This document shows, piece after piece, positions 11,425-59,356 of a DNA stretch of 64,000 nucleotides (position 1 is the first letter of the stretch; each line of letters begins with the position of its first letter). Position numbers and translations under genes: made by a program. This DNA comes from an uncultured Acidimicrobiales bacterium. GTDB lineage: Bacteria; Actinomycetota; Acidimicrobiia; Acidimicrobiales; Aldehydirespiratoraceae. Location of the stretch: positions 12,162 through 76,161 of the forward strand of contig CAJQPN010000044.1 of the NCBI GenBank assembly GCA_905480195.1, read 5' to 3'. Below the pieces are notes generated by a model that worked only from the letters and a program-made list of their open reading frames with translations, was not told the DNA's origin and made no database searches.

Positions 11425-11439
11425 GAGGGAGACGAGATC

Positions 11440-14372: not shown

Positions 14373-14375
14373 GGC

Positions 14376-15302: not shown

Positions 15303-15583
15303 GCACGGTTTTCCCCCAATGGGAAGTCTTCGTGCGTGCCCGCCGGGGCCTCGATCATCAGCACGCCGGCTCGGTGCACGCACCCGACGGTGAAACTGCC
15401 CTGCGAGCCGCACGCGATCTCTTCACACGTCGCCAGGAGGGAGTGAGCCTTTGGGTCGTCCCATCGAACGAGATCGTCGCATCCGACCCGGCCGACGTCG
15501 GCGCGCTGTTTGAGCCGGCCGCCGACAAGGCCTATCGCTTCCCCACGAGCTACGAACTTCCCCCCGAAGTCGATCACATGTGA
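15299..15583 (+). CDS. paaB: phenylacetyl-CoA epoxidase subunit B
   Basis: [37 protein letters not shown]. Confidence 0.95.
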
Positions 15584-16326: not shown

Positions 16327-16787
16327 CCACGTTGCTCGACATCGTGCGATCGGTCGACGATCCCGAGTTGCCGCACGTGACGATCGGCGACCTCGGCATG
16401 GTGCGCAGTGTGGCAATCGATGGTCGGATTGCTCGCATCCGGATCACGCCGACCTACACCGGTTGTCCGGCGACAGAGCAGATCCGCGCTGACGTCGAAG
16501 CAGCGGTGACAGAGGCTGGCTACGAGCCCGACGTTGCGTTCGAGATGGCTCCGCCATGGTCGACGGACGACATCAGCCCCGAAGGCCGCGCCAAGTTGCA
16601 CGCAGCTGGCATCGCGCCTGCGCTGCCGGCCGGCGACGGACCGGTGTCACTCGATCTGCCGGTGGAGTGCCCCCAGTGCGGGTCGCGTCGCACCCGGCTG
16701 ACGTCGGCCTTCGGCGCCACTGCGTGCAAGGCGCTCCACAGGTGCGATAGCTGCCGCCAGCCGTTCGAATCGTTCAAGGCGATCTGA
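16323..16787 (+). CDS. paaD: phenylacetyl-CoA epoxidase subunit D
   Basis: DPELP..DLGMVR, TPTYTGCPA, CPQCGS..FGATACKA..C..C..PFESFK. Confidence 0.95.
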   Translation: MTTLLDIVRSVDDPELPHVTIGDLGMVRSVAIDGRIARIRITPTYTGCPATEQIRADVEAAVTEAGYEPDVAFEMAPPWSTDDISPEGRAKLHAAGIAPALPAGDGPVSLDLPVECPQCGSRRTRLTSAFGATACKALHRCDSCRQPFESFKAI

Positions 16788-17860: not shown

Positions 17861-17879
17861 AACCACCAGGGAGCGAAGC

Positions 17880-19148
17880 ATGGGCTGGGAACCGATCGAG
17901 ACGGCGTCGATCGACGAATTGCGGTCGTTGCAGACGGAGCGGCTCCGGGCAACGCTTGCAAATGCGTACGACAATATCGGTCATTACCAAACGGCCTTCG
18001 ACGCCATAGGCGTGACCCCTGGCGACGTCGAGGGTCTCGACGATCTGTCGAAGCTGCCCTTTCTCGTGAAGGACGACCTTCGCAAGGCCTACCCCTTCGG
18101 CATGTTCGCCGTGCCCCGCGAGCAGCTCGTGCGCGTGCACGCCTCGTCGGGAACGACGGGAAAACCGACGGTTGTGGGCTACACCGCCGACGACATCGTC
18201 ACCTGGTCGACTGTCGTCGCCCGCTCGATCTATGCCGCCGGTGGTCGACCTGGTGATCTGCTCCACAACGCCTACGGGTACGGCCTGTTCACCGGCGGCC
18301 TCGGCGCGCACTACGGCGCTGAGATGCTCGGATGCACCGTCGTCCCGTTCGGTGGTGGCCAGACCGAGCGACAGGTCCAACTCATCAGTGACTTCCGCCC
18401 TCGGATCATCACGGTCACGCCGTCGTACTGCTTCAACCTGATCGACGAAATGGAGCGGCTCGGTCTGGACCCGAGAGCGTCGTCGCTTGACGTAGGCATC
18501 TTTGGAGCTGAGCCGTGGTCGGAGGGAATGCGAGAGGAGATCGAGGCCAGACTGGGAATCGACGCAGTCGATATTTACGGGCTATCGGAGGTCATCGGCC
18601 CGGGCGTGGCGCAAGAATGTGTCGAGACCAAGGACGGCCTGACGATCTGGGAAGATCACTTCTATCCCGAGATCATCAACCCCGACACCGGAGAAGTGCT
18701 CGCTGACGGCGAAGAGGGTGAGCTCGTCATCACCTCGCTCACCAAGCAGGCACTACCGGTCATCCGGTACCGCACACGCGATATCACCCGGATCCTCCCC
18801 GGGACTGCCCGCACCATGCGCCGTCTCGAACGCATCACCGGCCGTAGCGACGACATGCTGATCATTCGTGGCGTCAACGTCTACCCGTCGCAGATCGAAG
18901 CCGAACTGCTCCAGATCGATGGGCTGTCGCCGCACTATCAGCTGCACAAAGGCTCTGATGGCAACATGGCGACCCTCACAGTCAAGGTCGAGCGGGCCGA
19001 GAACTCTGCCACCGAGCACGCGGCCGGGCTGGCCGCCCGAGCCGAGCAGCGGATCAAGACCATGGTCGGGGTGTCGACTGCGGTCGAGGTCGTCGAGCCG
19101 GGTGAGGTGCCACGTAGCCAGGGCAAAGCGCAGCGGGTCGTCAGTTGA
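17880..19148 (+). CDS. paaK: phenylacetate--CoA ligase
   Basis: HASSGTTGKPTVVGYT, YGYGLFTGGLG, GAEPW, DIYGLSE, GRSDDMLIIRGVNVYPSQIE; start at ATG 17880 after AGGGAG. Confidence 0.95.
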   Translation: MGWEPIETASIDELRSLQTERLRATLANAYDNIGHYQTAFDAIGVTPGDVEGLDDLSKLPFLVKDDLRKAYPFGMFAVPREQLVRVHASSGTTGKPTVVGYTADDIVTWSTVVARSIYAAGGRPGDLLHNAYGYGLFTGGLGAHYGAEMLGCTVVPFGGGQTERQVQLISDFRPRIITVTPSYCFNLIDEMERLGLDPRASSLDVGIFGAEPWSEGMREEIEARLGIDAVDIYGLSEVIGPGVAQECVETKDGLTIWEDHFYPEIINPDTGEVLADGEEGELVITSLTKQALPVIRYRTRDITRILPGTARTMRRLERITGRSDDMLIIRGVNVYPSQIEAELLQIDGLSPHYQLHKGSDGNMATLTVKVERAENSATEHAAGLAARAEQRIKTMVGVSTAVEVVEPGEVPRSQGKAQRVVS

Positions 19149-34497: not shown

Positions 34498-35121
34498 TCA
34501 GTGCAACCCGAGCGTGATGTGATGGTCGGCGACGTCGGCATCGGTCGGGTCGTGAGTGACCCAGATCACCCGGGGCGTGTCGAGCGTAAGGAGCAATTGA
34601 CGGATGTCGGCGGTGCCGGCCTCGTCGATCGAGCCGAGTGGTTCGTCGAGCAGGATCGTCGATGCACGTGTGGCCATAGCTGTTGCGATGGCGGTCCGTT
34701 GGGCTTGGCCGCCCGACAGGCGGTGGGGGCGGAGATCGAGGAGGTGTCCGGCACCGACGCGTTCGGCGAACGGTCGCGCCATCGCCGAGGCCTCGGTGGC
34801 GTTGTGACCTCTGCGACGCAAGGGGTAAGCGATGTTCTGGAGCACCGTCAGATGGGGAAACAAGCGGGGTTGTTGGAACGTCATCGAGACGTCGCGGGTC
34901 TCGGCGGGAACGAAGATGCCCGTTGCTCGGTCGTCGAGCACCACGCCGTCGAGTGTGAGGCAACCCTCGTCGAGCGCTTCGAGTCCAGCCACCAACCGCA
35001 GGATCGACGACTTGCCGGCACCGTTTGGTCCGGTGATGGCGGTGATACCGAGCGGTAGCTCGAGATCGAGTTTGAGTTCGAGGGTTCCTCGGCGCAGGGT
35101 GCCGTCGATTCGAAGGTTCAT
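34498..35121 (-). CDS. modC: molybdate ABC transporter ATPase
   Basis: GPNGAGKS, LSGGQAQR, LLDEP, VTHD; ATGA overlap with modB; 207 aa. Confidence 0.85.
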   Translation of the reverse strand: MNLRIDGTLRRGTLELKLDLELPLGITAITGPNGAGKSSILRLVAGLEALDEGCLTLDGVVLDDRATGIFVPAETRDVSMTFQQPRLFPHLTVLQNIAYPLRRRGHNATEASAMARPFAERVGAGHLLDLRPHRLSGGQAQRTAIATAMATRASTILLDEPLGSIDEAGTADIRQLLLTLDTPRVIWVTHDPTDADVADHHITLGLH

Positions 35122-35906
35122 CGTGTGAACCACCGACCTCGCAGCGCCACGAGCACGGCGAGACTCACGCCGAGCAGGAGCACGCTCACGGCCACCGCCG
35201 ATGCGGGATCGGACTCGAGGGTGAGAAAGATCTCGAGGGGCAGCGTTCGGGTACGGCCCGCCAGGTTGCCAGCGAACGTGATCGTCGCGCCGAATTCGCC
35301 GAGGGCACGGGCCCAGGCGAGCGCCAGGCCCGCGAGGATCGCGTCCCGCGATGTGGGAATCGTGACCGTCAGCAGCCGGGTCAACGGTTCGGCACCGGCA
35401 ACCGCTGCTGCTTCCTCGAGTTCGGTGCCGGCCTGGCGCAGGGCCGCTTCGACGGTCGTGACGAAGAAGGGCAGGGCGACAAATGTCGCTGCCACGATTG
35501 CGCCGGCTGTGCTGAACGGGAGCGTGATCCCGAACCACGCATCGAGCCACTGCCCGATCAAGCCGCGCCGACCGAGCGCAAAGAGCAGTGCAGTGCCGCC
35601 GACGACCGGTGGCAGCACCATGGGGACGAGTACAGCGGCTCGCACGATTCCGACCAGTCGTCCGTCGTGGCGGGCGAGCAGCCATGCGAGCGGCAGGCCG
35701 AGCACCAGGCTCAGTGCTGCTGCGACGATGCTGACGACCAGCGAGACACGGATCGCCTCGAGAACTGTTTCGCTTCCGAGTCGTTCGAGCAGTGACGACC
35801 ATGGCGCACGTTGCAGCAGGCCCGCGATGGGGACGGTGACGAGTGCGACCCCGAGTCCGGCCGGGGCGAGAATCGCAAATGGTGGACGACGCGACGGAGA
35901 GATCAC
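35118..35906 (-). CDS. modB: molybdate ABC transporter permease
   Basis: PMVLPPVVGG, ARALGEFGATITFAGN, TRTLPL. Confidence 0.93.
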   Translation of the reverse strand: MISPSRRPPFAILAPAGLGVALVTVPIAGLLQRAPWSSLLERLGSETVLEAIRVSLVVSIVAAALSLVLGLPLAWLLARHDGRLVGIVRAAVLVPMVLPPVVGGTALLFALGRRGLIGQWLDAWFGITLPFSTAGAIVAATFVALPFFVTTVEAALRQAGTELEEAAAVAGAEPLTRLLTVTIPTSRDAILAGLALAWARALGEFGATITFAGNLAGRTRTLPLEIFLTLESDPASAVAVSVLLLGVSLAVLVALRGRWFTR

Positions 35907-36637
35907 GGGCCCCAACCCGAGTCGATGAGGATGCGCTTGCCGGCCCCGCTTGCGAGCCAGCGGAGGATCTCCATACCGCGTTCGTTGCCGCTACCCCGGT
36001 ACTCGTTGACGAAGGCGTCGAGGTCGTCGACCGGTATGACCTCGAGACCGGCGGCTCGCGCATCGGATCGGTAGACGAGGGCTGCGTCGATCTCGCCGGC
36101 GAGGAGCTTGGCCGTGAGCGCCCTGGCACTGGTTTCTTCAGTGTCGGGGGCTGGGGTAACACCGAGCGCTCTGGTGACGGCTGTCGCGAGCCGCCCACAC
36201 GGGACTTCGACTGCGCAGGAGCCGATCACCAAGTCGGCATCTTCGAGTGCCTCCAAACCTCTCACGTCGCCCGGGTTCCCTGCGGCCACTGCCAGGACGA
36301 GCACGTTAGATGCGATCGATTCTTCGCCGGGCCAGGTGACGTTGGCGGCCCGCGCCGCGTCGAACGTCGTGAGATCGGCGGTGATGAGCGCATCGGCAGG
36401 TGCACCGTCGACGAGTTGGGCCACCAACGTTTGACTCCCGGCGAACGCCCACTCGACCGGCCCGATCCCGGCTGCTGCGAGCCCGGCGTCGAGTTCAGCT
36501 TCGACCGGAGCGAACGACGATGGCGCGAACACGAGGCTTACCGCATCGTTGGTCGGCGAGGCGAGCCAGAACACGGCGAAGGCGAAGAGGGTCGCGAGCG
36601 CGACGAGACCGAGGAGCAGGGGAGTGCGGCGGTTCAC
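35903..36637 (-). CDS. modA: molybdate ABC substrate-binding protein
   Basis: FAGSQTL..GAPADALITAD, VPCG, GEIDAALVYRSD. Confidence 0.85.
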   Translation of the reverse strand: MNRRTPLLLGLVALATLFAFAVFWLASPTNDAVSLVFAPSSFAPVEAELDAGLAAAGIGPVEWAFAGSQTLVAQLVDGAPADALITADLTTFDAARAANVTWPGEESIASNVLVLAVAAGNPGDVRGLEALEDADLVIGSCAVEVPCGRLATAVTRALGVTPAPDTEETSARALTAKLLAGEIDAALVYRSDARAAGLEVIPVDDLDAFVNEYRGSGNERGMEILRWLASGAGKRILIDSGWGP

Positions 36638-37026
36638 GTGGCGCGTTCGATGACGACGTTGGTGGACTTGATCGAGGCGACCGCGGGCACGCCGGGTTCG
36701 AGGCCCAGTGCGTCGACCGCTTCAGCCGAGATCAGCGAAACGACCCGATGCGGACCGGCCTGGATCTCGACCTGGGCCATGACGGTGTCTCGCACGACGC
36801 GGGTGACGAGCCCAGGAAATCGGTTGCGGGCAGAGACGGAGTCGGCGTCGTCGACCGGTGCGTCGCCGAGCTCGAGTGCAAGTCGGGCCAATTCGGGGCC
36901 CTCGATCTCGCGCTGGCCCCCTTCGGTGCGAACCGTTTCGACACGGCCCTGGTCGGCCCACCGTCGGACGGTATCGGGGCTCACCCCGAGCAGTTGCCCA
37001 GCTTTTCCCAGTCGATAACGGTGCAT
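36634..37026 (-). CDS. HTH + TOBE molybdate-responsive regulator
   Basis: LLGVSPDTVRRW (MerR/excisionase-like HTH), SARNRFPGLV..IKSTNV (TOBE). Confidence 0.9.
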   Translation of the reverse strand: MHRYRLGKAGQLLGVSPDTVRRWADQGRVETVRTEGGQREIEGPELARLALELGDAPVDDADSVSARNRFPGLVTRVVRDTVMAQVEIQAGPHRVVSLISAEAVDALGLEPGVPAVASIKSTNVVIERAT

Positions 37027-38237: not shown

Positions 38238-39509
38238 GTGACGACCGTGCCCATCGAGTTCGACCCTGAGGTCATCGCAGCGAGTTCCGCGCCCGAGCAA
38301 CAGATGTATCGAGCCGAGAACTCCTCGACCGAACCGATGAAGTCGGTGCTCGAGAACAACCCCGAGATCTACTTCGTCGAGCCCAAGCGGGGCGCCGACT
38401 GGGGTACGTGGGAATACCGGGCCGGCTCGTACTACGACACCACCATCGGGGCGAAGCACGAGTACTGGTGCGACCACGACCTACCGCAAGAGACCAAGGA
38501 CATCGACCGACTCCGTCGCGACTTCGTGACATGGGGCTACTGCAAGGTCGAGGCAGCGTTGTCGCCGGCACAGGTCGCAGCGGTGCAGGAACGACTGCTC
38601 GCCCAAGCCGAAGGGGAGCGGCGGGCAAAGATCGCGCAGAAGACCCCGAGCGGACAGAACATCAACTCGTGCGTCAACAAGGGCGAGTGCTTCGAGCAGT
38701 TGATCGAGCAGCATCCGTCGATCATGCAAGGGGGTCCGCTGGTCGAGCAGTTGGTCACCGAGGCGCTCGGTCCGGGCTGGATCTGTACGTCGCTGATCGG
38801 AGCGATCTCGCTTCGGGGCGGCGTTCCCCAGGCACTCCATCAGGACCAGGGCAACGACCTCGACGCCACCAACCCGATGACGATCAACCTGCTGATTGCG
38901 ATCACCGACCTCGACGAGACCACCGGCGGAACGCTCATCATCCCGGGTAGCCACACGATCCTCGCCGAGGCCCTCCGCAAGGGCGAGGCGGTCGGCAAGC
39001 TGCCACCGGCGATCAACATTGATGCAAAGGCCGGCACCGTGGTGATCACCGATGGGCGCATCCTTCACGGTACGGGGATCAACCACACCGACGAGCCGCG
39101 GATCGTGATGCTCAACGGCATGCAGAAGCCGTACCTGCGCCAACAGGAAAACTGGATGCTGTCGGTCCGACCGGAGGTGCTCGCGCGGGCGAGTCCGAAG
39201 CTGCTGCACCGGATGGGCTTCCAAGCCACAACCGGTACCCAAACCAACGAGGGCCACGGGTTCGGTGCACGTGGGCTCGTCGGTGAGGAAGCAGGCGCAA
39301 CGGTCGGCTTCCGGAAGGCGGCCGACGCCGGGACCTACCTCCGAGTCGGCGAACTCGGTCCCGAGTCGACCGAGGCCGATCTGCAGGCCGATTACACCTT
39401 GCGCGAGGTAGTCGGGCGGGCGCGTTCAGGTGGTCGAAGCGCGCCGACCGGGATCACCGGGCTACGCGGCCCGTCCGGGGTTCAACAAGACGCCGATTTC
39501 ACGGGCTGA
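38238..39509 (+). CDS. phytanoyl-CoA dioxygenase (PhyH) family protein
   Basis: QALHQDQ, GGTLIIPGSH, LHGTGIN..R, LRQQEN; start uncertain (38202-38247). Confidence 0.85.
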   Translation: MTTVPIEFDPEVIAASSAPEQQMYRAENSSTEPMKSVLENNPEIYFVEPKRGADWGTWEYRAGSYYDTTIGAKHEYWCDHDLPQETKDIDRLRRDFVTWGYCKVEAALSPAQVAAVQERLLAQAEGERRAKIAQKTPSGQNINSCVNKGECFEQLIEQHPSIMQGGPLVEQLVTEALGPGWICTSLIGAISLRGGVPQALHQDQGNDLDATNPMTINLLIAITDLDETTGGTLIIPGSHTILAEALRKGEAVGKLPPAINIDAKAGTVVITDGRILHGTGINHTDEPRIVMLNGMQKPYLRQQENWMLSVRPEVLARASPKLLHRMGFQATTGTQTNEGHGFGARGLVGEEAGATVGFRKAADAGTYLRVGELGPESTEADLQADYTLREVVGRARSGGRSAPTGITGLRGPSGVQQDADFTG

Positions 39510-39562
39510 GCAGACGTCGGCGATCGATCGCTTCGCATCCGTCGGCAGCGCGGAGCCATGTC

Positions 39563-42457
39563 TCAGCTGTCGCTGCGATCGATGGCTCGCGTGTCGGTAC
39601 CGAGGTAACTCGCAACGACGGCGGGGTTGTTGCGAACGCTGTCGGGGTCGCCTTCCGCGATGACCGAGCCCGACTCCAGGCAGTACACCCGATCGCTGAT
39701 CCGCATGATCAGCGGCATGTCGTGCTCGATGATCAACATCGAGGCGCCGAGTTCGCGGCGGATCTCCTGGATGAGCGGCCCGAAGGCTTCCGTCTCCCGC
39801 TGGGCGACCCCTGCGGTGGGCTCGTCGAGGCAGAGGAGCTTGGCGTCGACGGCAAGCAGGCCGGCCAGTTCGACGATACGGCGGGTCCCGGTCGAGAGAT
39901 CGCTGATGAAGCTGTTGGCGTAGCGACCCAGGCCGAGGAAGGCGATGAGTTCGTCGGCCTCGGCCCGTTGGGCGCGCTCGATACGCCCGTCGAGAAAGAG
40001 GGCGCTACGGATGAAGGACGACCGGCGCCGAGCCTCGAGCGCAACCTGGATCGTCTGGCGCACCGTAAGTTCGGGGAACAGGGTGGCGGACTGGAAGGTG
40101 CGGCCGAGACCGGCTGAGGCACGGGCGGTAGGCGAGATTGCGCTGACGTCGTCGCCGAGCAGTTCGATCCGGCCGGTCGAGGACACGAAGCCACCGACTG
40201 CGTTCATAAACGTCGACTTGCCGGCACCGTTGGTCCCGATGAGTCCGACGATTTCGTCGCGCCGCACTTCGATCGACACGTCATCGACGGCAGTGAGCCC
40301 TCCGAACTTGACTTTCACGTCGGAGGTGCGAAGCACGACCTGGGGGATATCGCGGGCTTCACGGTGAACAACACTGACGGGAGCCGAGATGGTTGACGCC
40401 GTCTTGGCACTGTGCCCGAGTCGGCGTTCGGCACCGCTGATGATGAGGTTGCGGGCGCTGTTGGCAACCTGGATGAAGCCACCTGGGAAGTACATCAGCA
40501 CGACGAGCAGGCCGATCGATGATGTGAAGAGCGGCACAACATCGTTGTCGGGCCAGAACGCAGGAAGGCCCTCGACCCAGACCGCACCGAGCATGGCGCC
40601 GGTGACCGAACCGAGCCCCCCGATCACGGCGATGCCGACGACCTGGAGCGAGTCGTTGATGAGGAAGTGGGCCTCGGCGTAGCGAATTGTGGGAAGGAGG
40701 TTGGCGAACAACCCGCCGGCCAGACCGGCGACGAAGCCCGCGAGTGCGAAGGCGAGGAGCTTCGTGCGGGTGGGGCTGACGGTGTATGCCGATGCCGTGT
40801 CGGGGTTGTCGCGCACCGCGAGGATCCGTCGACCGATCGCCCCGTTCCGGAGGCGGTTGAGGATCAGCAGAGCAACGAGCGCCACAGCCAGCGAAAACAG
40901 GAAATATGCCTGCCCGCTCGCAAGGTCGAGGCCAAAGATCGAGCCCCGAGGGAACGATGGTGTCCGCTCGCCTCCAGAGAAGAACGGCCGCTGGTAGAGA
41001 TAGTCGAACGCGGCAATCGCGAACGCGAAGGTCGAGACCGCGAGCATCAGGCCGCGAACGCGAAGCGCCCCGATGCCGGTCAGCGCTGCGATCGCTGCTG
41101 TGACAAGAGCAGCGACGACGATGGCGACCGGAGCCACGAGGCCTACGAGCTGGAAGTCGAGCAGGCGGGTGTTGCCCCAGCCGACGTCGAGCGAGAAGCC
41201 GACGTGAAGTTTGTAGGCCATGAGACCACCGAGGCCGGCGTACGCCATCTGGGCGAGTGAGAGCTGTCCTGACCAGCCGGTGACGACGGTCACCGATGCG
41301 GCGCACAGACCGAAGACGATCACGGTCGTGTACAGGAAGAAGCGCGATGGTGTGATGTCGATCAGGGGAAGGCTCTCGTGGAACCACGTGATGGCGATCA
41401 CGACGAGCAGCGCAGCCGTCACGGCCAGGCGCGAGAGGTTCCGGATCCACCAGATCTCGCGAACATGATCGGGGATTGGCGGCACCTTTGGGGTGAACGC
41501 CATCAGCTCGTCATCGGTGGAACGGGCCTGGCGCCACACGGCAATGAAGACGATGCCGAAGAACACGAAGCTGGCGAAGCCCTGGTCGACGACGTCCCAG
41601 AGCCGCCACCAGGTGACGAGACCGCTGAGCAGGCCGATGAAGATCCCGCCGAGCATCGCCCGCGGGAAGGAACGCATTCCTGCGATGACTGCCGCCACGA
41701 GCGCGAGGTTCAGCGTGCCGTAGCCCAGATTTTGCACACCGGTCGTCGGTCCGCCGCTCGAGAGCAAGCTCATCGTGAGCGTCGCCAGCAGGCCACTCAT
41801 CACCCACACGATCGTGGAGACGGTGCGCGGTCGGATGCCGGCCAGTCGAGCGAGGGGAGCATTGTCGGCCGACGCCGTGACCGCCTTGCCGAACGTCGTG
41901 CGGTTGAGCCACAACGCCAGACCCACGGTGATGATCGGCACCATGATCAGCGTCTGGACCTGCGCTCCTCTGATGGCAATACCGGCAACGTTGAAGTCGG
42001 AGCTGATCGCTGCGGGGAAACCGATCTGCGCATTGTCGGTCGGCATGTCGGGGAGCTGTGCATTGGCCGCCGCAAGGAGCTGCGCGAGACCGACCGACGC
42101 GACGAGCAGGATCACCCGTGGTTGGTTAAAGAGTCGCCAGATGACGGTGAGATCGATGGCGAGGCCGATCGCCATGCCGAGCAGCAGACTGACCGCAAGG
42201 GCAGGCCAGAACGGCCAGTCCCACTTGACCACCAGCAGTGCAAAGAGGGTGGCACCGGGCAGGCCCATGTTGCCGACGGCGAAGTTGATGACCTTGGTCG
42301 ACCGGTAGGTCAGCACGATACCGAGCGCCAACAGGCCGATGTTGAGGCCGTACACGGCGCTGTCGAACAGCACCTTGCGGGTCGGGGGCTGCTCCCAGAG
42401 CGGCGAAAGTGCGCCGAGCAAACCGGCGAAGACCTGGCCGAGAACCTGCCCGAGCAT
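39563..42457 (-). CDS. fused Liv-type ABC transporter: LivH-like + LivM-like permeases + LivG-like ATPase
   Basis: YRSTKVINFA, GQLSLAQ, GRRILAVRDN, then GTNGAGKS, RTFQ, LSTG, LDEPTAG, IEHDM; 964 aa. Confidence 0.92.
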   Translation of the reverse strand: MLGQVLGQVFAGLLGALSPLWEQPPTRKVLFDSAVYGLNIGLLALGIVLTYRSTKVINFAVGNMGLPGATLFALLVVKWDWPFWPALAVSLLLGMAIGLAIDLTVIWRLFNQPRVILLVASVGLAQLLAAANAQLPDMPTDNAQIGFPAAISSDFNVAGIAIRGAQVQTLIMVPIITVGLALWLNRTTFGKAVTASADNAPLARLAGIRPRTVSTIVWVMSGLLATLTMSLLSSGGPTTGVQNLGYGTLNLALVAAVIAGMRSFPRAMLGGIFIGLLSGLVTWWRLWDVVDQGFASFVFFGIVFIAVWRQARSTDDELMAFTPKVPPIPDHVREIWWIRNLSRLAVTAALLVVIAITWFHESLPLIDITPSRFFLYTTVIVFGLCAASVTVVTGWSGQLSLAQMAYAGLGGLMAYKLHVGFSLDVGWGNTRLLDFQLVGLVAPVAIVVAALVTAAIAALTGIGALRVRGLMLAVSTFAFAIAAFDYLYQRPFFSGGERTPSFPRGSIFGLDLASGQAYFLFSLAVALVALLILNRLRNGAIGRRILAVRDNPDTASAYTVSPTRTKLLAFALAGFVAGLAGGLFANLLPTIRYAEAHFLINDSLQVVGIAVIGGLGSVTGAMLGAVWVEGLPAFWPDNDVVPLFTSSIGLLVVLMYFPGGFIQVANSARNLIISGAERRLGHSAKTASTISAPVSVVHREARDIPQVVLRTSDVKVKFGGLTAVDDVSIEVRRDEIVGLIGTNGAGKSTFMNAVGGFVSSTGRIELLGDDVSAISPTARASAGLGRTFQSATLFPELTVRQTIQVALEARRRSSFIRSALFLDGRIERAQRAEADELIAFLGLGRYANSFISDLSTGTRRIVELAGLLAVDAKLLCLDEPTAGVAQRETEAFGPLIQEIRRELGASMLIIEHDMPLIMRISDRVYCLESGSVIAEGDPDSVRNNPAVVASYLGTDTRAIDRSDS

Positions 42458-44724
42458 CAGCCACCCTCCGACCCGAGGAAGACGGCACGGGCAAGATCGT
42501 CACGCTCGGCGAGCTCGTGTGCCGGACCCTCGAACCGGACCTGGCCCTTCTCGAGGAACACGGCCCGATCTGCGATTGCGAGCGCGACGTTGAGCGACTG
42601 CTCGACGACGATCATCGTTTGGCCTGCTGCCCGCAGCGTGTCGATGTGACTGAGGAGATCCTGCACCACGGTCGGGGCGAGACCGAGGCTGAGTTCGTCG
42701 ATGATCAAGACGTCGGGCTCGTGGAGCATGACGCGCCCCAACGCAAGCATTTGCTGCTGGCCGCCCGAGAGATCACCGGCTCTGGTGGCCTGGTGCTCGG
42801 CGAGAGCGGGAAACAGGCCGAATACCTTTGCGATTCGGCGTTCGACCGCAGCTTTGTCTCGGCGGTACCGGAACGCCCCCATCTCGAGGTTTTCTCGAAC
42901 CGTCATCGATGGGAAGACGCCACGACCGCCGGGGAGCATCTCGATCCCGAGCTTGCCGCGAACTTCTGGCGTGGCGAACGTGATGGTGCGACCGTCGAGG
43001 CGCACAACACCGCGCTCGGGTGTAACGAGGCCGGTGATGACGTTGAGGATCGTCGACTTTCCTGCACCGTTGGTGCCGAGAAGCGCGAGCGTCTCACCCT
43101 TGCGGACCTCGAACGAGAGGTCGAACAGTACTTGGACCTGGCCGTAGCTGAAGTCGACCTGGTTGACCTGGATCGCTGGGATGTTGTCGGGATCGTCGGC
43201 CTGGCGGCGTTGCTCATCCTGCTCCTCGCGCAGTTCGGAAACGACCAGGCTGAGATCGCGACGCATGCGGCGTGATCCCTGCACCATGAAGAAGCCGCCC
43301 AACGGCATGAACAGCATCGTGAGTGCGATGATCGTGGGCCGTTCGCCGACTGCGTCTTGCAGGAAGGCCGAGATCAGGCCGCCGGCGATGCCGCCGCCGG
43401 CGAACATGAAGAACGTGATGATCGCTGTGCCCATGCCTCGTAGGCGGTACGGGACAACGCTCTGGATCGACGGTTGGATCATTGCGAACGAGGCACCGAG
43501 GAACGTCATGTTGAATGCGCCGACAACGACGAAGGCGAGGAGTGCCCACGGAATCGTGGCGGTGCCGAGAGGCCCGAAGTCGAAGACTGCCCGGTTCTCA
43601 AGCAAGCTCGGCATGGCGTATTGCAGCGGCACAAGCAAGGTTGACGGCAGGAGGAGAAGGCCGAGAATCTTCATAGCGCCGTCGGGGTTGGTGCGGAAGG
43701 TCCGGTCGAACTTTCGCCCGACCCACGGCAGGAAGAAGATCAGCAGGACGCCCGACGGCGCGACAGCGAAACCACGTTCGAGCGCATCGAGCCCGAACTC
43801 CTCTTCGAGGAAAAAGCTCTGGATCGACTGTGCGGGGAACAACGCGAAGCCGATTGCGACCATCGCCAACGTCATGTACCGAATCGTGTCGATCCGCCAG
43901 ATGCGGGCGAAGGCCGCTTCGACCGAAATCGGGACCTCTTCGCGCGCTTCGAGTCCCGCTCCGAGAACGTCTTTTTTCTCCCACTGGCCCCGTTCGGGTT
44001 CGGGGATGAAGAACGCGAGCAGACCCATCACAGCGACGGGAACGCCGAGAACGAAATATGCCCATCGCCAGCCGGCAGCGCCCCCGGCAATGGCGGCGAT
44101 GCCACCGACGAGGATCGGCGACGCCGCAGAGAAGATACGCCCGACGCCCTGATTGGTGGCATACATGCGGCCGCGGGTGGCGATCGGATAGGTGTCGGCG
44201 AGCAAGGTGCTGTGGACCGTGATGGTGTTCGCCTTGCTGATACCGGTGAAGAATCGTGCGACGAACAGGTTGAAGGCGTTCACTGCCGCGCCCGACAAAA
44301 ACGCGAAGACCCCGAACGCGAGGCTGGCGAAGCCGACGATTGGGCCACGGCGCATGCGGTCGGCGAGCCAACCCATCGGTCCGGCACCGAGCACGAAGAA
44401 TGCGACCGACGCAGTGGAGATGAACGTGATCGTGCCATCGCTGACATCGAAGGTCTCGGCGATGTCGGGCCCGAGGATCGTGATAGCCGACTGCTCGAGC
44501 TCGTCGAGCGAGTTGAGGATGAGCAGCACGATGAAGGTGAAGAAGCCGCCCTTGCGGAGGCCTTCCTTGAGTGGCATCTCTTCGCCGCCGACTCCGGGCA
44601 GGAGGTCATCGGCGAAGATGACGTCGTCGGAGCGCTTCGCTTGTGCGGCCTGGCGGGCAGCTTCTTCGTCGAGTACGGCGGCGGTCAGCGACGCCGCACG
44701 GTGCTGCTGCTCGTCGTCGGTCAC
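42457..44724 (-). CDS. MFS permease fused to a LivF-like ABC ATPase
   Basis: N-terminal MFS (GWLADRMRRG motif A, ARFFTG, GWRWAY) then GTNGAGKS, LSGGQQQM, IDELSLGLAP, VEQS; 755 aa. Confidence 0.9.
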   Translation of the reverse strand: MTDDEQQHRAASLTAAVLDEEAARQAAQAKRSDDVIFADDLLPGVGGEEMPLKEGLRKGGFFTFIVLLILNSLDELEQSAITILGPDIAETFDVSDGTITFISTASVAFFVLGAGPMGWLADRMRRGPIVGFASLAFGVFAFLSGAAVNAFNLFVARFFTGISKANTITVHSTLLADTYPIATRGRMYATNQGVGRIFSAASPILVGGIAAIAGGAAGWRWAYFVLGVPVAVMGLLAFFIPEPERGQWEKKDVLGAGLEAREEVPISVEAAFARIWRIDTIRYMTLAMVAIGFALFPAQSIQSFFLEEEFGLDALERGFAVAPSGVLLIFFLPWVGRKFDRTFRTNPDGAMKILGLLLLPSTLLVPLQYAMPSLLENRAVFDFGPLGTATIPWALLAFVVVGAFNMTFLGASFAMIQPSIQSVVPYRLRGMGTAIITFFMFAGGGIAGGLISAFLQDAVGERPTIIALTMLFMPLGGFFMVQGSRRMRRDLSLVVSELREEQDEQRRQADDPDNIPAIQVNQVDFSYGQVQVLFDLSFEVRKGETLALLGTNGAGKSTILNVITGLVTPERGVVRLDGRTITFATPEVRGKLGIEMLPGGRGVFPSMTVRENLEMGAFRYRRDKAAVERRIAKVFGLFPALAEHQATRAGDLSGGQQQMLALGRVMLHEPDVLIIDELSLGLAPTVVQDLLSHIDTLRAAGQTMIVVEQSLNVALAIADRAVFLEKGQVRFEGPAHELAERDDLARAVFLGSEGG

Positions 44725-44802
44725 TCGTCCCCCTGACGCCCCTTGACAGGGGTGACCATAGGCGCGTTCACAGGGTGCGGACTAGCTGATTCTGACGCAC
44801 CG

Positions 44803-45573
44803 TCAGGAGTCGTCACCCGACCCGTTTCTGCGGGCGGTGCTCGGTGGGCCGGCGCTCGTGTGACGGGTGTTCGGCGGGTCGACCGCCCAGGCAGGTGTGC
44901 TTCCCCACGGGCCGTCGAACACAAAGTGGTCGAGAGGTCGTCGTCGAACTGGTCCGTGACCGCCGACCGGCTTGCCAACCGTGACCGTGGCCGCCAACAA
45001 GGCATCGTCGGGTATCTGCAACAAGGTGCGCAGTTCGAGCTCCACCGGAAGGTGCCACATTGCGACCACGCCGCCGTAGCCGAGCCCACGAGCAGCGAGG
45101 AGGAGGTTCTGCACGGCCGGGTAGATCGACGATCCCTCGGTCTCGGTCGGCTCTCGGTAGCGGAGCAGGACGGGCAAGATCAATGCCGGTACGGTCGCGA
45201 GGCTGGCGATGTGTTCGTCCATCGAGCGCGCCATCCGAGCCTTCGGGGAGCCGTCCTCGCTACTTCGGCCCCCCTCGTAGCCGTCGCTACGGCGCTTGGC
45301 CTGCCAGATCCGAGAGGCGGCCTCGGCAACGAGTCGTTTGGCCTCGGCTGCGATCGGACCGTCGGTCAGCACGATTAAACGGAACGGCTGCCGGTTGCTG
45401 CCGGTCGGTGCCCGGCTGGCGGCGAAACAGATGTCGCGCAGAACGTCATCGGGGACGGGTTCGTTGCGATATCGGCGAATCGATCGAGTACTGGCGATTC
45501 CCTCGAGGAGACCGACCGTGTCGGTGGCGACCGGCGTTTCGGCGAGCGGATTGGTCGACTCGTCGTCGGTCAT
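44803..45573 (-). CDS. nitroreductase family protein
   Basis: RSIRRY..PVP, APTGSNRQP, AVQNLLLAARGLGYG. Confidence 0.9.
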   Translation of the reverse strand: MTDDESTNPLAETPVATDTVGLLEGIASTRSIRRYRNEPVPDDVLRDICFAASRAPTGSNRQPFRLIVLTDGPIAAEAKRLVAEAASRIWQAKRRSDGYEGGRSSEDGSPKARMARSMDEHIASLATVPALILPVLLRYREPTETEGSSIYPAVQNLLLAARGLGYGGVVAMWHLPVELELRTLLQIPDDALLAATVTVGKPVGGHGPVRRRPLDHFVFDGPWGSTPAWAVDPPNTRHTSAGPPSTARRNGSGDDS

Positions 45574-45648
45574 GGACGCCACCCTAGGCCGCTCATCTGC
45601 GGTGGACCGTCGGATCGCTCCGGGGTCGGTGTTGTACGCTCACCGTCC

Positions 45649-53961: not shown

Positions 53962-54987
53962 TCAGCCTGCTTTGATCTCGTCCATCACGCCTCGGTAGGC
54001 GTTGATGTCGCCCTGGCCAGGGGCGTAGAACGAGATGCGGTCGACGATGTCGCCGTAGCGTTGGATGAGGCCCGACGCGATCTCGTGAGGCTCGCCGACG
54101 ACGGCGAATGCGTTGAGGATCTCGTCGTCGATCAGGTCGCCCATGCCCACCCAGTCACCCTGCTTCGACAAGGTGTTGAGGCGAGGCTGAAGATCGGTCC
54201 AGCCGTGATGTTCGAACACCACGGCGTAGGCGGGTGTCGAGCCGTAGAACGCAATCTGCTGCTTCGTCGCCGCCATAGCTGCTTCAAATTCCTGCTCTGT
54301 CTGCCCTGACACGACGAAGAACGGTCCGGAGATCATGAAGTCATCCATCGACTTGCCGGCCCGGTCACGCCCCTCGGTCAGATTCGGAACGGTGACGTCT
54401 CGCAGGTACTGCTCGGTGGTGAACCCGTGAGCGATGAAGCCGTCGCAGACCTCGCCCGCCGTGCGGGTCATCAGTTCACCGACACCGGCCAGCCAGATGT
54501 TGGGAACGCCGTGGTCGGCGAGGTCAGACTTGTCGGGGGTGAAGAACGGCGTCATCAAGGTGTGGGTGTAGAACTCGCCCTTGAAGCGCAGCGGCTCGTC
54601 GGTGAGCCAGGTGTCCCAGATGGCGCGGATGGCCGAGATCATCTCCTTGGCTCGAGCTGCCGGCTTGCTCCACTCCATCGAGAAGCGCTTCGTGATGTGC
54701 GGCTTGATCTGGGTACCGAGGCCGAGGTTGAAGCGGCCGTTGCTCATCGCCTGGAGATCCCAGCCGAGGTTGGCGAGCAGCATCGGGTTTCGCGCGAAGG
54801 CCACGGCGATCGACGTGCCGAGCTCAAGCGTCTCGGTGTGCTCGGCCGCGAGCACGAGCGGCAGGAATGGGTCGTGGCTTGTCTCGGCCGTCCAAATGCC
54901 GTCATACCCGGCGGCTTCTTGCGCCTTGGCGTTGGCGACGATCTTTTCGATGTTCGAGCCGAGCCCGAGTCCCCCGTCTACTTTCAT
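53962..54987 (-). CDS. F420-dependent LLM-class oxidoreductase
   Basis: AETSHDPF, AFARNPM, GLGTQIKPH, QIAFYGSTPAY. Confidence 0.9.
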   Translation of the reverse strand: MKVDGGLGLGSNIEKIVANAKAQEAAGYDGIWTAETSHDPFLPLVLAAEHTETLELGTSIAVAFARNPMLLANLGWDLQAMSNGRFNLGLGTQIKPHITKRFSMEWSKPAARAKEMISAIRAIWDTWLTDEPLRFKGEFYTHTLMTPFFTPDKSDLADHGVPNIWLAGVGELMTRTAGEVCDGFIAHGFTTEQYLRDVTVPNLTEGRDRAGKSMDDFMISGPFFVVSGQTEQEFEAAMAATKQQIAFYGSTPAYAVVFEHHGWTDLQPRLNTLSKQGDWVGMGDLIDDEILNAFAVVGEPHEIASGLIQRYGDIVDRISFYAPGQGDINAYRGVMDEIKAG

Positions 54988-56420
54988 GCGTCGCTGTTTA
55001 GCACCGGCGACCTGATGAAGCAGAACACCGGTGTCGGGTCATCCGGCACGGTGGCGCTGGCGCCGACCGGACGAGCGGTTGCCACTGACAGCGCGACGGC
55101 CACGCCTGCGGCAGCGAGGGTTATGCCGATTCCGGCAGGGACGAGCGGCGTGCCGTGCGCGCCGGGGCTGGGAGGCTCGGGCACCGGCGACTCGTCGATC
55201 AGTAGGTGGAGGACCATTCCGGTTACGCCCAACGCCACACCGATCCACCAGATCGCGAGGTACGAGTTGGTCGCATCGAGGAGCTCGCCGCCGAGGAAGG
55301 CACCGCTGAACGATCCGATCTGATGTGACAGGAACACGATGCCGAACAGCGCGCCGGCATGGGTCGGGCCGAACTGTTGGGTGACGATTGCGGACGTCAT
55401 CGGCACGGTCCCCAGCCACAGCAAACCCATCGCCATGCCGAAGGCGATGGTCGACGCGTCGCTCAGCGGCACGACGAGATACGCAGCGATGACCACAGCC
55501 CGGAGGCCGTAGATCCAGGCGAGCACGGTCGTGAATCGCAGCCGTTGACCCAAGACGCCCACGAGCAGCGAGCCGGCGACGTTGAACAAGCCGATGAGTG
55601 CCAGTCCGGTCGATGCAGTGGAACTACTGATCCCCCCGTCCTCGGCGTAGCCAGGCAGGAAGATCCCGATGGACGTGACGTGGAACCCGCACACGAAGAA
55701 GGCGCCATTGAGCATCAGGTACGAGCGACTGTGACTCGCCCGCCGGAGTTCGTCGCGCAGCGTGCGGACCGGTTCGTCACCTGGGCGGTCGAGGCCGGAT
55801 GTGGCGCCATCGGCGCTGCTTACGGCGACGCTGGCGGTAAACGGGGCGACGAGCACGATCAGGCCGGCGACCACAGCGAGCAGGACGAGCGTGTCGGACC
55901 AGCCGGTGCGGTCGAGATGCCACTGGGCGGCGGGCACGAGCACGAACTGCCCGAGTGAACCGACCGCCGAGACGATGCCGAGGTTGAGGCTGCGCTTCTC
56001 TGGGGGCGAGATCTTGCCGACGGTCGATAGGACCACCGCGAAGCTGGCGGCTCCGATCGCGACGCCGGTGACGAAGCCGCCGGACAGCAACACCATGGTC
56101 GGCGAGCTGGCCTGCGACAGCAGTAGCAACGACAGCATGTACAGCAGGCCACCGGCAGCGAGGGTGGGAGCTGCACCGAATCGGTCGGACGCAGCACCTG
56201 CGATCGGTTGCGAGAGCCCCCAGAGCAGGTTCTGGACTGCGATGGCGATCGCGATCGAGCCGGTCTGAGTGCCGAGGCCGTCTGCGATGGGTTCGAGCAG
56301 GATCCCAAACGTCGACCGCACGCCCAGACTGATCGACGTGATGGTACCGCCGGCGACGAGGACAACCCAGAGGGGGAAGCGGCTGCGATGCGCTGCGCCG
56401 GGGGCCGCGGAGCCGTTCAC
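54984..56420 (-). CDS. MFS transporter
   Basis: GAASDRFG, FFVCGFH, SHQIGSF; GTG start overlaps the upstream stop. Confidence 0.88.
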   Translation of the reverse strand: MNGSAAPGAAHRSRFPLWVVLVAGGTITSISLGVRSTFGILLEPIADGLGTQTGSIAIAIAVQNLLWGLSQPIAGAASDRFGAAPTLAAGGLLYMLSLLLLSQASSPTMVLLSGGFVTGVAIGAASFAVVLSTVGKISPPEKRSLNLGIVSAVGSLGQFVLVPAAQWHLDRTGWSDTLVLLAVVAGLIVLVAPFTASVAVSSADGATSGLDRPGDEPVRTLRDELRRASHSRSYLMLNGAFFVCGFHVTSIGIFLPGYAEDGGISSSTASTGLALIGLFNVAGSLLVGVLGQRLRFTTVLAWIYGLRAVVIAAYLVVPLSDASTIAFGMAMGLLWLGTVPMTSAIVTQQFGPTHAGALFGIVFLSHQIGSFSGAFLGGELLDATNSYLAIWWIGVALGVTGMVLHLLIDESPVPEPPSPGAHGTPLVPAGIGITLAAAGVAVALSVATARPVGASATVPDDPTPVFCFIRSPVLNSDA

Positions 56421-57733
56421 GGTCGGCGCAGTCGGGGGCGTCGTGTCGATGTTGCGAGTGTGATCGGGTCGACTCGATCGGGACGGGGAGCTGCTTCCTC
56501 GGATGACTCGTCGAGTGATTCTGCGAGCGCCTTGCGGTGACCACCTCGAAGCCAGAAGTCGACGCCGAGCCACATCGCGATGGCGGTGAAGATCAGCATG
56601 CCGATCGCTCCGGTCGTGTAAGCCGCGGCGCGCCCGTGTTCCTGGTAGATGGTGGCGATGACGACGGCGGTGATACCGCCGGCCAACGCCTGGGTGGCGC
56701 CGATCAGGCCCTGCGCGCCTGATTGGCGCTCCTCCGGTACCGCCATTGCGACGGCCACGCCGGAAGCCGAGACGGTGAGGCCATCGGTGAGCGCGTGCCC
56801 CATCGTGAACGCGAAGATCCACTCACCTGAGGGCAGTTGACCATATGCCGACATGAAGAACGCACCGGCGATCAGTCCGAGGCCTCCGACTTTGAACGGT
56901 CCGACCCGCTGGCTCAGGCGGCCGCTGAACGGACCGAAGACGACGAGGGGAATGGCGAAAAGCGTGATGCCGAGGTTCGACATCCAGTCGGCGGTGCCGA
57001 GGTCGTCGTGGACGACATCCCACAAGGCGTCGAACGCGCCGATCATCAAGAACACACCACCGCCCATCACGACGGCGCCGGCCACGATCCGCGACTTCAG
57101 CAGGTCGAAGGCGAGTCGTTGACCGCTGGTATCGACCCGCTCTTCGACGTGGAACGACTCGGCGATGGCGAGCATCACAAGGGTGGCTGCTGCGACGATG
57201 ACGTACGGTGCTGCGAGCCCGAACGGGCCGACGAGCAGAGCCGACAGGGCTGGACCCATTGCGAAACCGAAGACGTCGGCGCTGAGGAGTCGCCCGAGGT
57301 TCTCGCCAAGGTTCTCCGGGTCGGCCAGGATGACGATGCGGCGGATCGCCGGGATTGCCGTGCCGATGCCGAGACCAGAGATGACCCGTCCGGCGAGCAG
57401 CACCTCGAGGCTCTCTCCGAAGCCGAGCATGAGGATGCCGATGATGTTGAGCAACACGCCAACCCGGATCAGGTTGCGGGCATGGCCCCGGTCACCGATT
57501 GGGGCGATCAGGGTCTGGGCAAAGAAGGCCACGATGAACCCGAGTCCGATCAGCCAGCCGATGGCAGTCTCGCTGATGCCGTAGGCGTCGCGATAGTCGG
57601 CGACGACCGTGAAGAGCACCCCGTAGCCGGAGGCGAGTAGGGCCGAGAGCCCTCCGAAGATCCAGGAGGGCGGGATTGGCCGACGATTCCCGGGTTTCTG
57701 CCGGGGCGCGGACGGGTTCACGGCGGCAGACAT
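56417..57733 (-). CDS. MFS transporter
   Basis: IGDRGH motif A-like, GRVISGLG, about 12 hydrophobic segments. Confidence 0.85.
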   Translation of the reverse strand: MSAAVNPSAPRQKPGNRRPIPPSWIFGGLSALLASGYGVLFTVVADYRDAYGISETAIGWLIGLGFIVAFFAQTLIAPIGDRGHARNLIRVGVLLNIIGILMLGFGESLEVLLAGRVISGLGIGTAIPAIRRIVILADPENLGENLGRLLSADVFGFAMGPALSALLVGPFGLAAPYVIVAAATLVMLAIAESFHVEERVDTSGQRLAFDLLKSRIVAGAVVMGGGVFLMIGAFDALWDVVHDDLGTADWMSNLGITLFAIPLVVFGPFSGRLSQRVGPFKVGGLGLIAGAFFMSAYGQLPSGEWIFAFTMGHALTDGLTVSASGVAVAMAVPEERQSGAQGLIGATQALAGGITAVVIATIYQEHGRAAAYTTGAIGMLIFTAIAMWLGVDFWLRGGHRKALAESLDESSEEAAPRPDRVDPITLATSTRRPRLRRP

Positions 57734-57787
57734 CCCGGGACTCTAGGCGTCGGTGACGCAGCGACGATATTTGGCAGGCGCAGTGCC

Positions 57788-59356
57788 TCAGCCGGGGGTG
57801 GCAGCCCCACCGCTTTGTTCGGCCTCGGCATCCGCCAGTGCGGTGGTGGTTCGCAGTTCGAGTTCAGGCAGGAACCAGGCGATCACGCAGAACAGTGTGA
57901 TGACGGGGACGGCCGACCACATGATCAGGTTGGTGGCCACGGCGACGGCGTTTTCGACAGCCATGCGCAACGTCGGTTCGAGGGCCTGGATGTCTTGGGG
58001 GGTGGAGAGGAGTTCGTCGACATCGAGCGCACCCCGTTCGGTGGCATCGAGTCTGCCGAGTTCGTGGTTGATGGTCGAGGTGAGCAGCGCACCGAGGGCG
58101 CCGACGCCGATCGTCGAGCCGAGCGACCGGAAGAAGTTGATGGCGGCGGTACCGGCACCAAGGTCGACAAGCGTGAGGGAGTTCTGGGTCGCGGTGGTCA
58201 TCGTCGGATAGATGATGCCCATTGCAAATCCGGCGACGACGAGCCACGGAATGGCGTCGTAGATGGAACTGTCGACATCAAAGGTGGTGAAGCCGAGGTT
58301 TGTCAACAAGGTGAGTACCGGTGCGGTCAAGACGAGCCAGCGGTAGCGGCCCGTGTCGGAGATCACGCGGCCGGCGAACCACGATCCCACCGGGACACAA
58401 AGGGTGGAGGCGGCGAGGACGAGGCCGGCGGTGGTGGGCGCTTCGCCGAGTGATACCTGGAAGAACAGCGGAAGGAACGAAAAGGTCGCCATGCCGACGA
58501 CTCCGTACGTGAAGTTGCCCCAGGTGAGGATGGCGAAGGTGCGATTGCTGAAGAGTCGCATCGGCAGCACGGGTTCGGAGGCCCGGCTTTCCCACCAGAT
58601 GAACAGTGCGGTGGAGACAATCGACCAGCTGAGCAGGGCAAGGATGAACGGCGATGCCCAGCCGTAGGAGCCGTCGCCTCCACCAAGTGCAACGCCGAGG
58701 ACGAGGGTGGTCACCCCCGAGACGAGGATCGCAGATCCGGTCAGGTCGAGATTTCGGACTCGGGCCGGCAGCCGGAAGGTGAGGTTGGTGTGGATGATCG
58801 CGATGGTGATGAGCCCGAGCGGCACATTGACGAGGAAGATCCACCGCCAGCTGGCGACGTCTACGAACACGCCACCGATCACCGGCCCGGCAAGGGCGGA
58901 TGCAGCGAAGTTCATGGTGTAGTAGCCCATGTACCGGCCGCGTTCGCGGGGCGAGAAGATGTCGCCGATCACGATGAACCCCATCGCCATCAGCCCGCCG
59001 CCACCGATGCCTTGCAGTCCTCGTGACACGACGAGCTGCCACATGGTCTGGCTTGCCGCCGCCATTACCGAGGTGACGATGAAGATGGTGAGTGCCGCTT
59101 CGGTGAGTGCTCGCCGCCCGTAGATGTCGGACAGCTTTCCGTAGAGCGGCGTGGCTGCGACCGAACCGAGCAGGTAGGCGGTGAGTACCCATGGCAGCTG
59201 ATCGATCCCACCGAGTTCGCCCGCGATGGTGGGCAGAGCTGTAGAGACTGCGGTGCTGTCGAGTGACGACAGAAAGGTTGCTGTCATCATGCCGCCGAAG
59301 ATCAGAAAGGTTTGACGACGGTCGGGCAGGTTTGTCGGGGTGGCGGTCTCGGTGAT
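57788..59356 (-). CDS. DHA2 (EmrB/QacA-like) MFS efflux transporter
   Basis: LDSTAVSTALP, GKLSDIYGRR, RGLQGIGGGG, WRWIFLVNVP; first ATG is at 59290 but the frame is open to an ATC at 59356. Confidence 0.88.
   Translation of the reverse strand: MTETATPTNLPDRRQTFLIFGGMMTATFLSSLDSTAVSTALPTIAGELGGIDQLPWVLTAYLLGSVAATPLYGKLSDIYGRRALTEAALTIFIVTSVMAAASQTMWQLVVSRGLQGIGGGGLMAMGFIVIGDIFSPRERGRYMGYYTMNFAASALAGPVIGGVFVDVASWRWIFLVNVPLGLITIAIIHTNLTFRLPARVRNLDLTGSAILVSGVTTLVLGVALGGGDGSYGWASPFILALLSWSIVSTALFIWWESRASEPVLPMRLFSNRTFAILTWGNFTYGVVGMATFSFLPLFFQVSLGEAPTTAGLVLAASTLCVPVGSWFAGRVISDTGRYRWLVLTAPVLTLLTNLGFTTFDVDSSIYDAIPWLVVAGFAMGIIYPTMTTATQNSLTLVDLGAGTAAINFFRSLGSTIGVGALGALLTSTINHELGRLDATERGALDVDELLSTPQDIQALEPTLRMAVENAVAVATNLIMWSAVPVITLFCVIAWFLPELELRTTTALADAEAEQSGGAATPG

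Follow-up and report, generated by a model that had tools for sequence, protein, structure and literature searches.

A major facilitator domain fused to the LivF-like ATPase of an ABC transporter in Acidimicrobiia, and an orphan binding-protein gene from the subfamily linked to such transporters

Importers of the HAAT family (TC 3.A.1.4), such as LivJ/K-LivHMGF of E. coli and UrtABCDE, consist of two BPD_transp_2 permeases, a LivG-like and a LivF-like ATPase and a binding protein of the Peripla_BP_6 type. Such ATP-binding cassette (ABC) transporters and the carriers of the major facilitator superfamily (MFS) are treated as separate engines. Here, we analyse a gene pair of an uncultured Acidimicrobiales bacterium in which the two are permanently joined, an arrangement that is common in Acidimicrobiia. 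The pair lies in a 64,000-nucleotide stretch of contig CAJQPN010000044.1, in the following called the window, and encodes a fusion of an MFS domain with a LivF-like ATPase and a second fusion of LivH-, LivM- and LivG-like domains (Table 1). With regard to the permeases, the ATPases and the type of binding protein, the system is like the HAAT importers. However, a whole MFS domain sits on LivF, LivH, LivM and LivG form a single chain, LivF carries Gly at the Q-loop position, the LivG signature reads LSTGT, and the binding protein belongs to a divergent lipoprotein subfamily with four invariant Cys, whose gene is unlinked in the lineage of the window. Judged from its sequence, the system belongs to the HAAT family without being an equivalog of LIV-I or Urt; the best NCBIfam matches were UrtE/LivF for the first ATPase and LivG/UrtD for the second, all of them under the equivalog cut-offs (score/cut-off: LivF 186/441, UrtE 201/286, LivG 196/362, UrtD 191/304).

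The MFS part resembles the Spinster carriers (Spns1, Spns2, HnSpns) and the DHA1/VMAT-type carriers in its 12-helix fold, in motif A and in the residues E77 and R157, which correspond to the Spinster pair Asp41:Arg122. Unlike in Spinster, Glu129:Arg42 is replaced by K164 and Q78, transmembrane helix (TM) 1 holds the extra acids D74 and E75, and an ABC ATPase is fused. Bacterial MFS proteins with additional domains have been described, and the available parts of two papers report C-terminal CBS, CNBD, PAS and UspA domains as well as LplT with acyltransferase/synthetase (PMC10710835; PMC8154325). A cytoplasmic, C-terminal, nucleotide-binding partner is a feature shared with these fusions, but in the present case the MFS domain is joined to a subunit of a primary transporter that is separate and complete in itself, and the same parts of both papers do not name an ABC ATPase as an MFS fusion partner. 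Our literature search, which left subscription journals mostly uncovered, found no paper on an MFS-LivF fusion, in agreement with the first-pass annotation made by a model from the bare sequence, which knew of no characterised example. Surveys of MFS fusions may list it, and databases automatically label such proteins as ATPase/MFS fusions. The hybrid is real and conserved and apparently unstudied, whereas the statement in the same annotation that the system has no binding protein was wrong.

Our preferred reading, to which we assign a rough probability of 0.45, is an importer that is fed by a binding protein, takes up hydrophobic organic acids and bears a tethered, linker-gated carrier as an outward relief path. 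The part of it that describes a binding-protein-dependent importer is, taken alone, very probable. The binding lipoprotein would deliver its cargo to LivH-LivM for import, and LivF in all likelihood pairs with LivG, which would place the MFS domain in the same complex. More tentatively, the cargo could be aromatic or fatty-acyl organic acids and not Leu, Ile or Val, the fixed helical linker could transmit the closure of the ATPases to the MFS domain and gate the carrier by the nucleotide cycle, and the MFS domain could export the same cargo class or its products and thereby act as a relief valve for membrane-active substrates. If the link were mechanical, the system would offer a first direct way to test the control of an MFS carrier by an ABC ATPase.

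The gene pair had been annotated as a 755-aa open reading frame, joining an apparently complete MFS permease with motif A to a LivF-like ATPase, and a 964-aa LivH-LivM-LivG fusion, coupled at 42457 by a TGATG overlap and flanked by nitroreductase and PhyH dioxygenase genes. Coordinates, overlap, domains and flanks were all borne out. Pfam placed MFS_1 at residues 76-447 (118 bits, cut-off 33) and ABC_tran at 534-677 of the 755-aa protein, found two BPD_transp_2 domains (187 bits, cut-off 26.8), ABC_tran and BCA_ABC_TP_C, the C-terminal tag of LivG, in the 964-aa protein, and identified the neighbours as PhyH and Nitroreductase. The overlap suggests translational coupling of the two fusion genes. 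A scan for promoters and terminators gave no usable signal, with two promoter-like sites, both intragenic, and fewer terminator-like sites than were found in shuffled sequence.

Conservation of the fusion is evident from the 120 best homologues listed (59-95% identity), 118 of which are full-length fusions of MFS and ABC domains, the other two being fragments; the closest homologues (95-97% identity) carry labels of Acidimicrobiales or Actinomycetota metagenome-assembled genomes (MAGs). Furthermore, in each of three DNA runs from three studies, which are marine or estuarine by record and any of which may be the window's own source, one contig covers positions 39400-45600 (6.2 kb) with 7-8 substitutions and no indels. 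The sole variant at the junction, position 43231, is synonymous by codon count. Together with the full-length homologues, these indel-free spanning contigs exclude an assembly misjoin or frameshift between MFS domain and ATPase. In the RNA run X17, five short contigs fall on both fusion genes and the nitroreductase gene and none across a junction; DNA carry-over is possible. The fusion system is single-copy in the window's genome (2.78 Mb, 66 contigs, 87% complete), which also has two ordinary Liv operons.

The claim that no binding-protein gene accompanies the operon stands for the locus, as no HAAT-type binding-protein gene occurs in or beside the operon within the window, but it fails for the genome. 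Another contig carries an orphan gene for a lipoprotein with Peripla_BP_6 over the cut-off, a long acidic linker and the four invariant Cys (Table 1), and this lipoprotein belongs to the transporter-linked subfamily. A profile of fusion-linked binding proteins, which also matches LivJ/LivK-type structures, recognised the orphan with E 5e-82 as the one strong match in the genome, compared to E 1.6e-4 for the binding protein of the ordinary Liv operon in the window; BLASTP detected no similarity between these two proteins. The binding proteins of the two ordinary Liv operons were considered as partners and rejected, since both come with permeases of their own and that of the window is not similar to the subfamily, and ModA (35906-36637) belongs to a mod operon. 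Taken together, these comparisons indicate that it is the locus that lacks the binding protein, and not the system. Locus-level absence of a binding-protein gene is unsafe evidence here, and the orphan offers a handle for identifying the cargo.

Among 79 related loci, 42 have a gene for a Peripla_BP_6-type lipoprotein within the fetched flanks and 37 do not. Binding-protein-free loci are concentrated in the window's own clade, which provides 33 of the 37 and has 34 loci in total, with L079 as the member that does have the gene; 22 of these 33 extend at least 8 kb on both sides of the fusion gene. The sister loci L033 and L034 keep the gene context of the window and still have the binding-protein gene upstream. 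In phylogenetic trees, the orphan groups with the proteins encoded in cis at L036/L038 (FastTree support 0.99), which are nearest to it, and at L033/L034 (0.94). IQ-TREE returned the same nesting, and the branching of the orphan's subclades corresponds to that of the permease and MFS trees. An orthologue of the orphan (best piece with at least 50% identity) is present in 28 of the 32 genomes behind the 33 binding-protein-free clade loci. In the 16-19 kb fetched around each of 13 orphan binding-protein loci, no Liv permease of this kind was found. Moreover, among 301 genomes of the class, the subfamily is carried by 61 of 62 with a strong MFS-domain match (E <= 1e-38), by 6 of 53 with a weak match and by 3 of 186 with none, counts that were made among kin and with a profile including binding proteins of five sampled genomes, that of the window (G000) among them. 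In the one strong-match genome without the subfamily, the fusion lies on a 3.7-kb contig, and two of the three carriers without a match have a divergent fusion. As a separate observation, four genomes (G011, G023, G032 and G033) hold 10-17 subfamily matches each, which suggests many binding proteins sharing few transporters.

Structure prediction lent weak support to this partnership. The complex of LivH-LivM with the orphan scored 0.43 against 0.01 for the best control, with a contact agreement of at least 77% between runs and a predicted local distance difference test value (pLDDT) of at least 72 for the partner, using the binding protein cut to 358/398 core residues; a close cousin might pass as well. 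Of 157 solved complexes, 116 attained the score mark, as did 2 of 215 mismatches, and the scores within the mark up to 0.60 comprise 18 of the 157 solved complexes and both passing mismatches. The orphan probably docks on LivH-LivM. The sequence search of LivH-LivM against solved structures gave no match.

These results bear on the strongest version of the first-pass annotation, according to which the transporter works without a binding protein and the MFS domain takes its place. The 33 loci of the window's clade and the genome G001, in which neither query detected any subfamily member, agree with it. Nevertheless, it is largely refuted and now highly improbable: a gene of the cognate subfamily exists in the window's genome and most other genomes of the clade and co-occurs with the transporter across the class, a binding-protein gene is cis-linked in more than half of the related loci, in all 14 loci of the second gene layout described below and in a cultured Embleya operon, and a membrane-embedded MFS domain cannot occupy the extracellular docking face. 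A binding protein as the rule across loci and a dispensable MFS domain had been named in advance as findings that would contradict the annotation; the first was found, and of the second there was no sign.

The family is widespread and variable in gene order. MFS-domain matches occurred in 115 of 301 sampled Acidimicrobiia genomes, and most of the matches examined were fusions. A sample of the phylum (401 genomes) added 10 matching genomes outside Acidimicrobiia; cultured carriers are three Jiangella strains and Embleya sp. NBC_00888, which has MFS-F, H-M-G and a binding protein in one operon followed by a GH3 glycosidase (L194:18476-20947). The LivH-LivM-LivG gene comes next after the MFS-LivF gene in 76 of 80 clustered loci, including the window. 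At least five layouts exist, for example MFS-F + H-M-G, H-M + MFS-F-G and MFS-F + H-M + G; the MFS domain is always N-terminal to LivF, while LivG is found on the permease chain, on the MFS chain or as a free gene. Open frames of 1270-1850 aa, which could have indicated a single-chain transporter, were stop-to-stop frames of a two-gene layout. In the second layout, a LivH-LivM gene and an MFS-LivF-LivG gene, all 14 loci have an adjacent gene for a binding-protein-like protein, with Pfam over the cut-off in one of five scanned and weak in another. The fetched loci with weak MFS matches mostly show this layout (seen in L112-L122, L124, L128, L161, L177, L181-L183, L187, L188, L191 and L193), which mostly comes with a gene for a membrane-anchored binding-protein-like protein and in which most members retain the Spinster TM1 Arg lost in the window's type. 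Since the MFS domain and both ATPases share one chain in the second layout, it strengthens the one-complex reading. The earlier proposal, in which LivF-LivG pairing would anchor the entire MFS domain to an ABC core of the HAAT type, is supported. Among the 141 MFS domains assigned to the family, LivF is the fusion partner of 134 and five are free-standing, with no binding-protein or Liv gene adjacent by profile search. The remaining two are apparent splits, which we attribute to a contig end and a 10-N assembly gap (L148). Finally, the locus L155 (G185:C17) has a related binding protein, an unfused LivF and LivH-M-G, and no MFS gene. In the LivF tree, its LivF is placed outside the clade of fused proteins, at a low support of 0.67, and L155 possibly represents the pre-fusion state and could serve as a natural control.

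With respect to the ATPases, LivF was correctly reported to have an intact Walker A, LSGGQ and Walker B; the refinement is that its Q-loop position holds Gly. The Q-loop, switch-His and signature positions were placed as in ABC ATPases in general. Gly occurs at the Q-loop site of fused LivF in 42 of 43 rows (Ala in one), compared to Glu in the two ordinary LivF proteins of the genome, and the switch-His position holds Gln, the same as in ordinary LivF. In LivG, the non-canonical signature LSTGT is found in 74 of 74 rows, with the window counted twice. From this asymmetry, one hydrolysing and one degenerate site are predicted: site 1, built from the LivG Walker motifs and the LivF LSGGQ, would hydrolyse ATP, and site 2, built from the LivF Walker motifs with the Q-loop Gly and no switch His and from the LivG LSTGT, would bind ATP and hydrolyse it poorly. 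LivF's own ATP site thus looks degenerate, and the MFS domain would be attached to the subunit that owns it. An asymmetric ABC ATPase pair that controls a separate membrane pathway exists in the K-ATP channel SUR-Kir6, although these proteins are unrelated and SUR has no import function.

The connector between the MFS domain and LivF is of nearly constant length, since 62-65 aa separate the end of the MFS domain from Walker A in 35 of the 37 measurable ones among 53 diverse representatives. The model of the whole MFS-LivF chain reached a predicted template modelling score (pTM) of 0.73, which suggests a defined arrangement of MFS domain and ATPase; a Foldseek search with the whole chain gave only ABC proteins among the matches listed. 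Both features argue against a fusion that merely ensures co-expression, i.e. an independent MFS carrier joined to LivF to fix its stoichiometry or to anchor LivF, without any mechanical coupling, and the same applies to the absence of a natural split in the family. Such an origin would agree with the unfused ABC set of L155, with the free-standing MFS relatives and with the readiness of this family to fuse genes (LivH-M-G; F-G), but we consider it quite unlikely. The more demanding idea, that LivF-LivG closure drives or gates the rocker-switch of the MFS domain via the linker, so that ATP would power or time the MFS domain and one binding-protein-fed machine would serve two membrane pathways, is conceivable and yet somewhat doubtful.

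The MFS domain is under purifying selection (ratio of non-synonymous to synonymous substitution rates, dN/dS, 0.015-0.14 in 17 pairs), and its dN is lower than that of both permeases in 14 of the 17 pairs. This higher constraint of the MFS domain, the fixed linker length, the retention of the fusion through at least five rearrangements and the closest structure, the lipid carrier Spns1, would also fit a serial relay, in which MFS and ABC parts act in sequence on one amphipathic cargo and uptake needs both. The ABC part could then release cargo into the bilayer for the Spinster-like domain to flip, or the binding protein could feed both paths. However, LivH and LivM have retained their motifs and evolve under purifying selection as well, a related ABC set without an MFS domain exists in L155, and none of the five free-standing MFS relatives adjoins a binding-protein or Liv gene. 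We regard such a relay as unlikely. In the permease region (40433-42376), dN against L004, L005, L008, L010 and L027 is 0.21-0.30, compared to 0.09-0.12 for MFS/LivF; the permeases changed much faster on the branch leading to the small clade that contains the window.

The solved folds closest to the modelled MFS domain are those of Spns1, VAChT, SotB, NorA and VMAT2, with human Spns1 aligned over 413 residues (Z 39.7, root-mean-square deviation 2.9, 19% identity), and the best sequence match has E 5e-9. The counts of conserved residues among the 53 fused representatives are 43 for D74, 39 for E75, 41 for an acid at position 77, 45 for R157, 40 for K or R at position 164, 46 for P203 and 48 for G207, whereas Glu is not among the five commonest residues at position 164. 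The P..G pattern of TM5 resembles motif C of antiporters. Motif A and the RxRG gating motif of TM10-11 are near invariant, and the TM1 acids, motif A, the TM4 Arg and the TM5 pattern are largely shared by the five free-standing relatives. When conservation was compared helix by helix, none of the peripheral helices stood out in a way that would point to a contact with the permeases. E77 and R157 were assigned by alignment to human Spns1, the HnSpns numbering following from shared motifs, and Q78, which stands with K164 in place of the Arg42:Glu129 switch, is a variable position. In the available parts of one report on HnSpns (PMC9440201), Glu129:Arg42 is described as a proton switch, besides the pair Asp41:Arg122.

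The replacement of the switch Glu, with K or R in most representatives, could indicate a sensor, i.e. an MFS domain that binds its cargo but has lost transport and instead turns the ATPase on or off via the linker helix. Transceptors of this kind are UhpC and Snf3/Rgt2. Attachment to the ATPase with the degenerate site would agree with such a role, and regulatory domains fused to transporters are a common theme in the available part of one survey (PMC10710835). However, the free-standing relatives lack the switch Glu, too, so that its absence predates the fusion and was inherited from the carrier family; decay after the fusion is ruled out. Moreover, the near-invariant motif A and RxRG motif are as expected for a cycling carrier. 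Because the residue pattern is family-wide, is common to the free-standing relatives and does not reflect decay, the MFS domain is likely still a carrier, and a pure sensor appears improbable.

The cargo class of our preferred reading was proposed from the catabolic neighbour genes and from fold matches of the binding protein that are not diagnostic. The neighbours of fusion loci encode CoA ligases, enoyl-CoA hydratases, CoA transferases, short-chain dehydrogenases/reductases, luciferase-like monooxygenases and sulfatases, and the top fold matches of the binding protein, at 12-18% identity, hold hydroxybenzoate or fatty acid. Besides the kinship and the trimmed protein mentioned above, several points weigh against this importer with a gated outward carrier. 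Since the fold matches also include binders of Leu, urea and amide, they do not fix the cargo. The mirroring of the trees is equally expected from plain vertical descent, and four of the 32 clade genomes, all of them MAGs of unstated completeness, have no orthologue of the orphan: three have only a distant subfamily member and G001 has none with either query. Furthermore, L155 provides an example of a related ABC module that lacks the carrier, and its unfused LivF also has the Q-loop Gly, so that this residue was not acquired for the fusion. Nor can coupling to protons be taken for granted, as the Spinster Glu129:Arg42 switch is not kept, and Spns1 itself transports its cargo towards the cytosol.

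Table 1. Features of the MFS-LivF system; positions refer to the window unless a contig of the genome is named.
Feature	Position	Strand	Remarks
LivH-LivM-LivG fusion gene, 964 aa	39563..42457	-	open reading frame call and Pfam
LivG-like ATPase, residues ~707-958	39584..40339	-	Walker A, Q-loop Gln, Walker B DE and switch His intact
LivM-like permease domain, residues ~340-675	40433..41440	-	Pfam and domain layout
LivH-like permease domain, residues ~28-312	41522..42376	-	Pfam and domain layout
TGATG stop/start overlap	42455..42459	-	CATCA on the + strand; 1-nt overlap at 42457
MFS-LivF fusion gene, 755 aa	42457..44724	-	GTG start; G-rich run resembling a ribosome-binding site immediately upstream
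LivF-like ATPase, residues 516-755	42460..43179	-	Walker A, LSGGQ and Walker B DE intact
Predicted linker helix, residues 487-510	43195..43266	-	structure model; part of the fixed-length MFS-to-ATPase connector
MFS domain, residues 56-485	43270..44559	-	12 predicted membrane helices, motif A, Spinster/DHA1-like fold
MFS key residues: TM1 acids D74/E75/E77; TM4 R157 and K164	within 43270..44559	-	
Orphan HAAT-type binding lipoprotein	G000:C24:5586-7049	+	likely partner of the transporter; lies beyond the window in locus L080, between methyltransferase and flavoprotein genes

Some further observations concern the surroundings of the system. Sulfatases flank another clade (L040-L078), which together with the GH3 glycosidase of Embleya gives a hint at conjugated aromatic cargo. 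In L037, L055, L057, L060, L064, L065, L068, L069 and L071, two divergent copies of the system stand back to back and enclose at least two binding-protein genes. In the window, a mod-type operon (34501-36984, - strand) encodes a TOBE protein, an SBP_bac_11 binding protein, a permease and a short ATPase of 211 aa, and such an operon adjoins the fusion locus in many relatives. The ordinary Liv-type operon of the window (4716-19145, + strand), with an AMP-binding ligase, two permeases, a binding protein and two ATPases, is immediately followed by a gene cluster for phenylacetate catabolism (paa). Furthermore, three ordinary MFS genes that fall outside the fused family are arranged in tandem at 54987-59290 (- strand).

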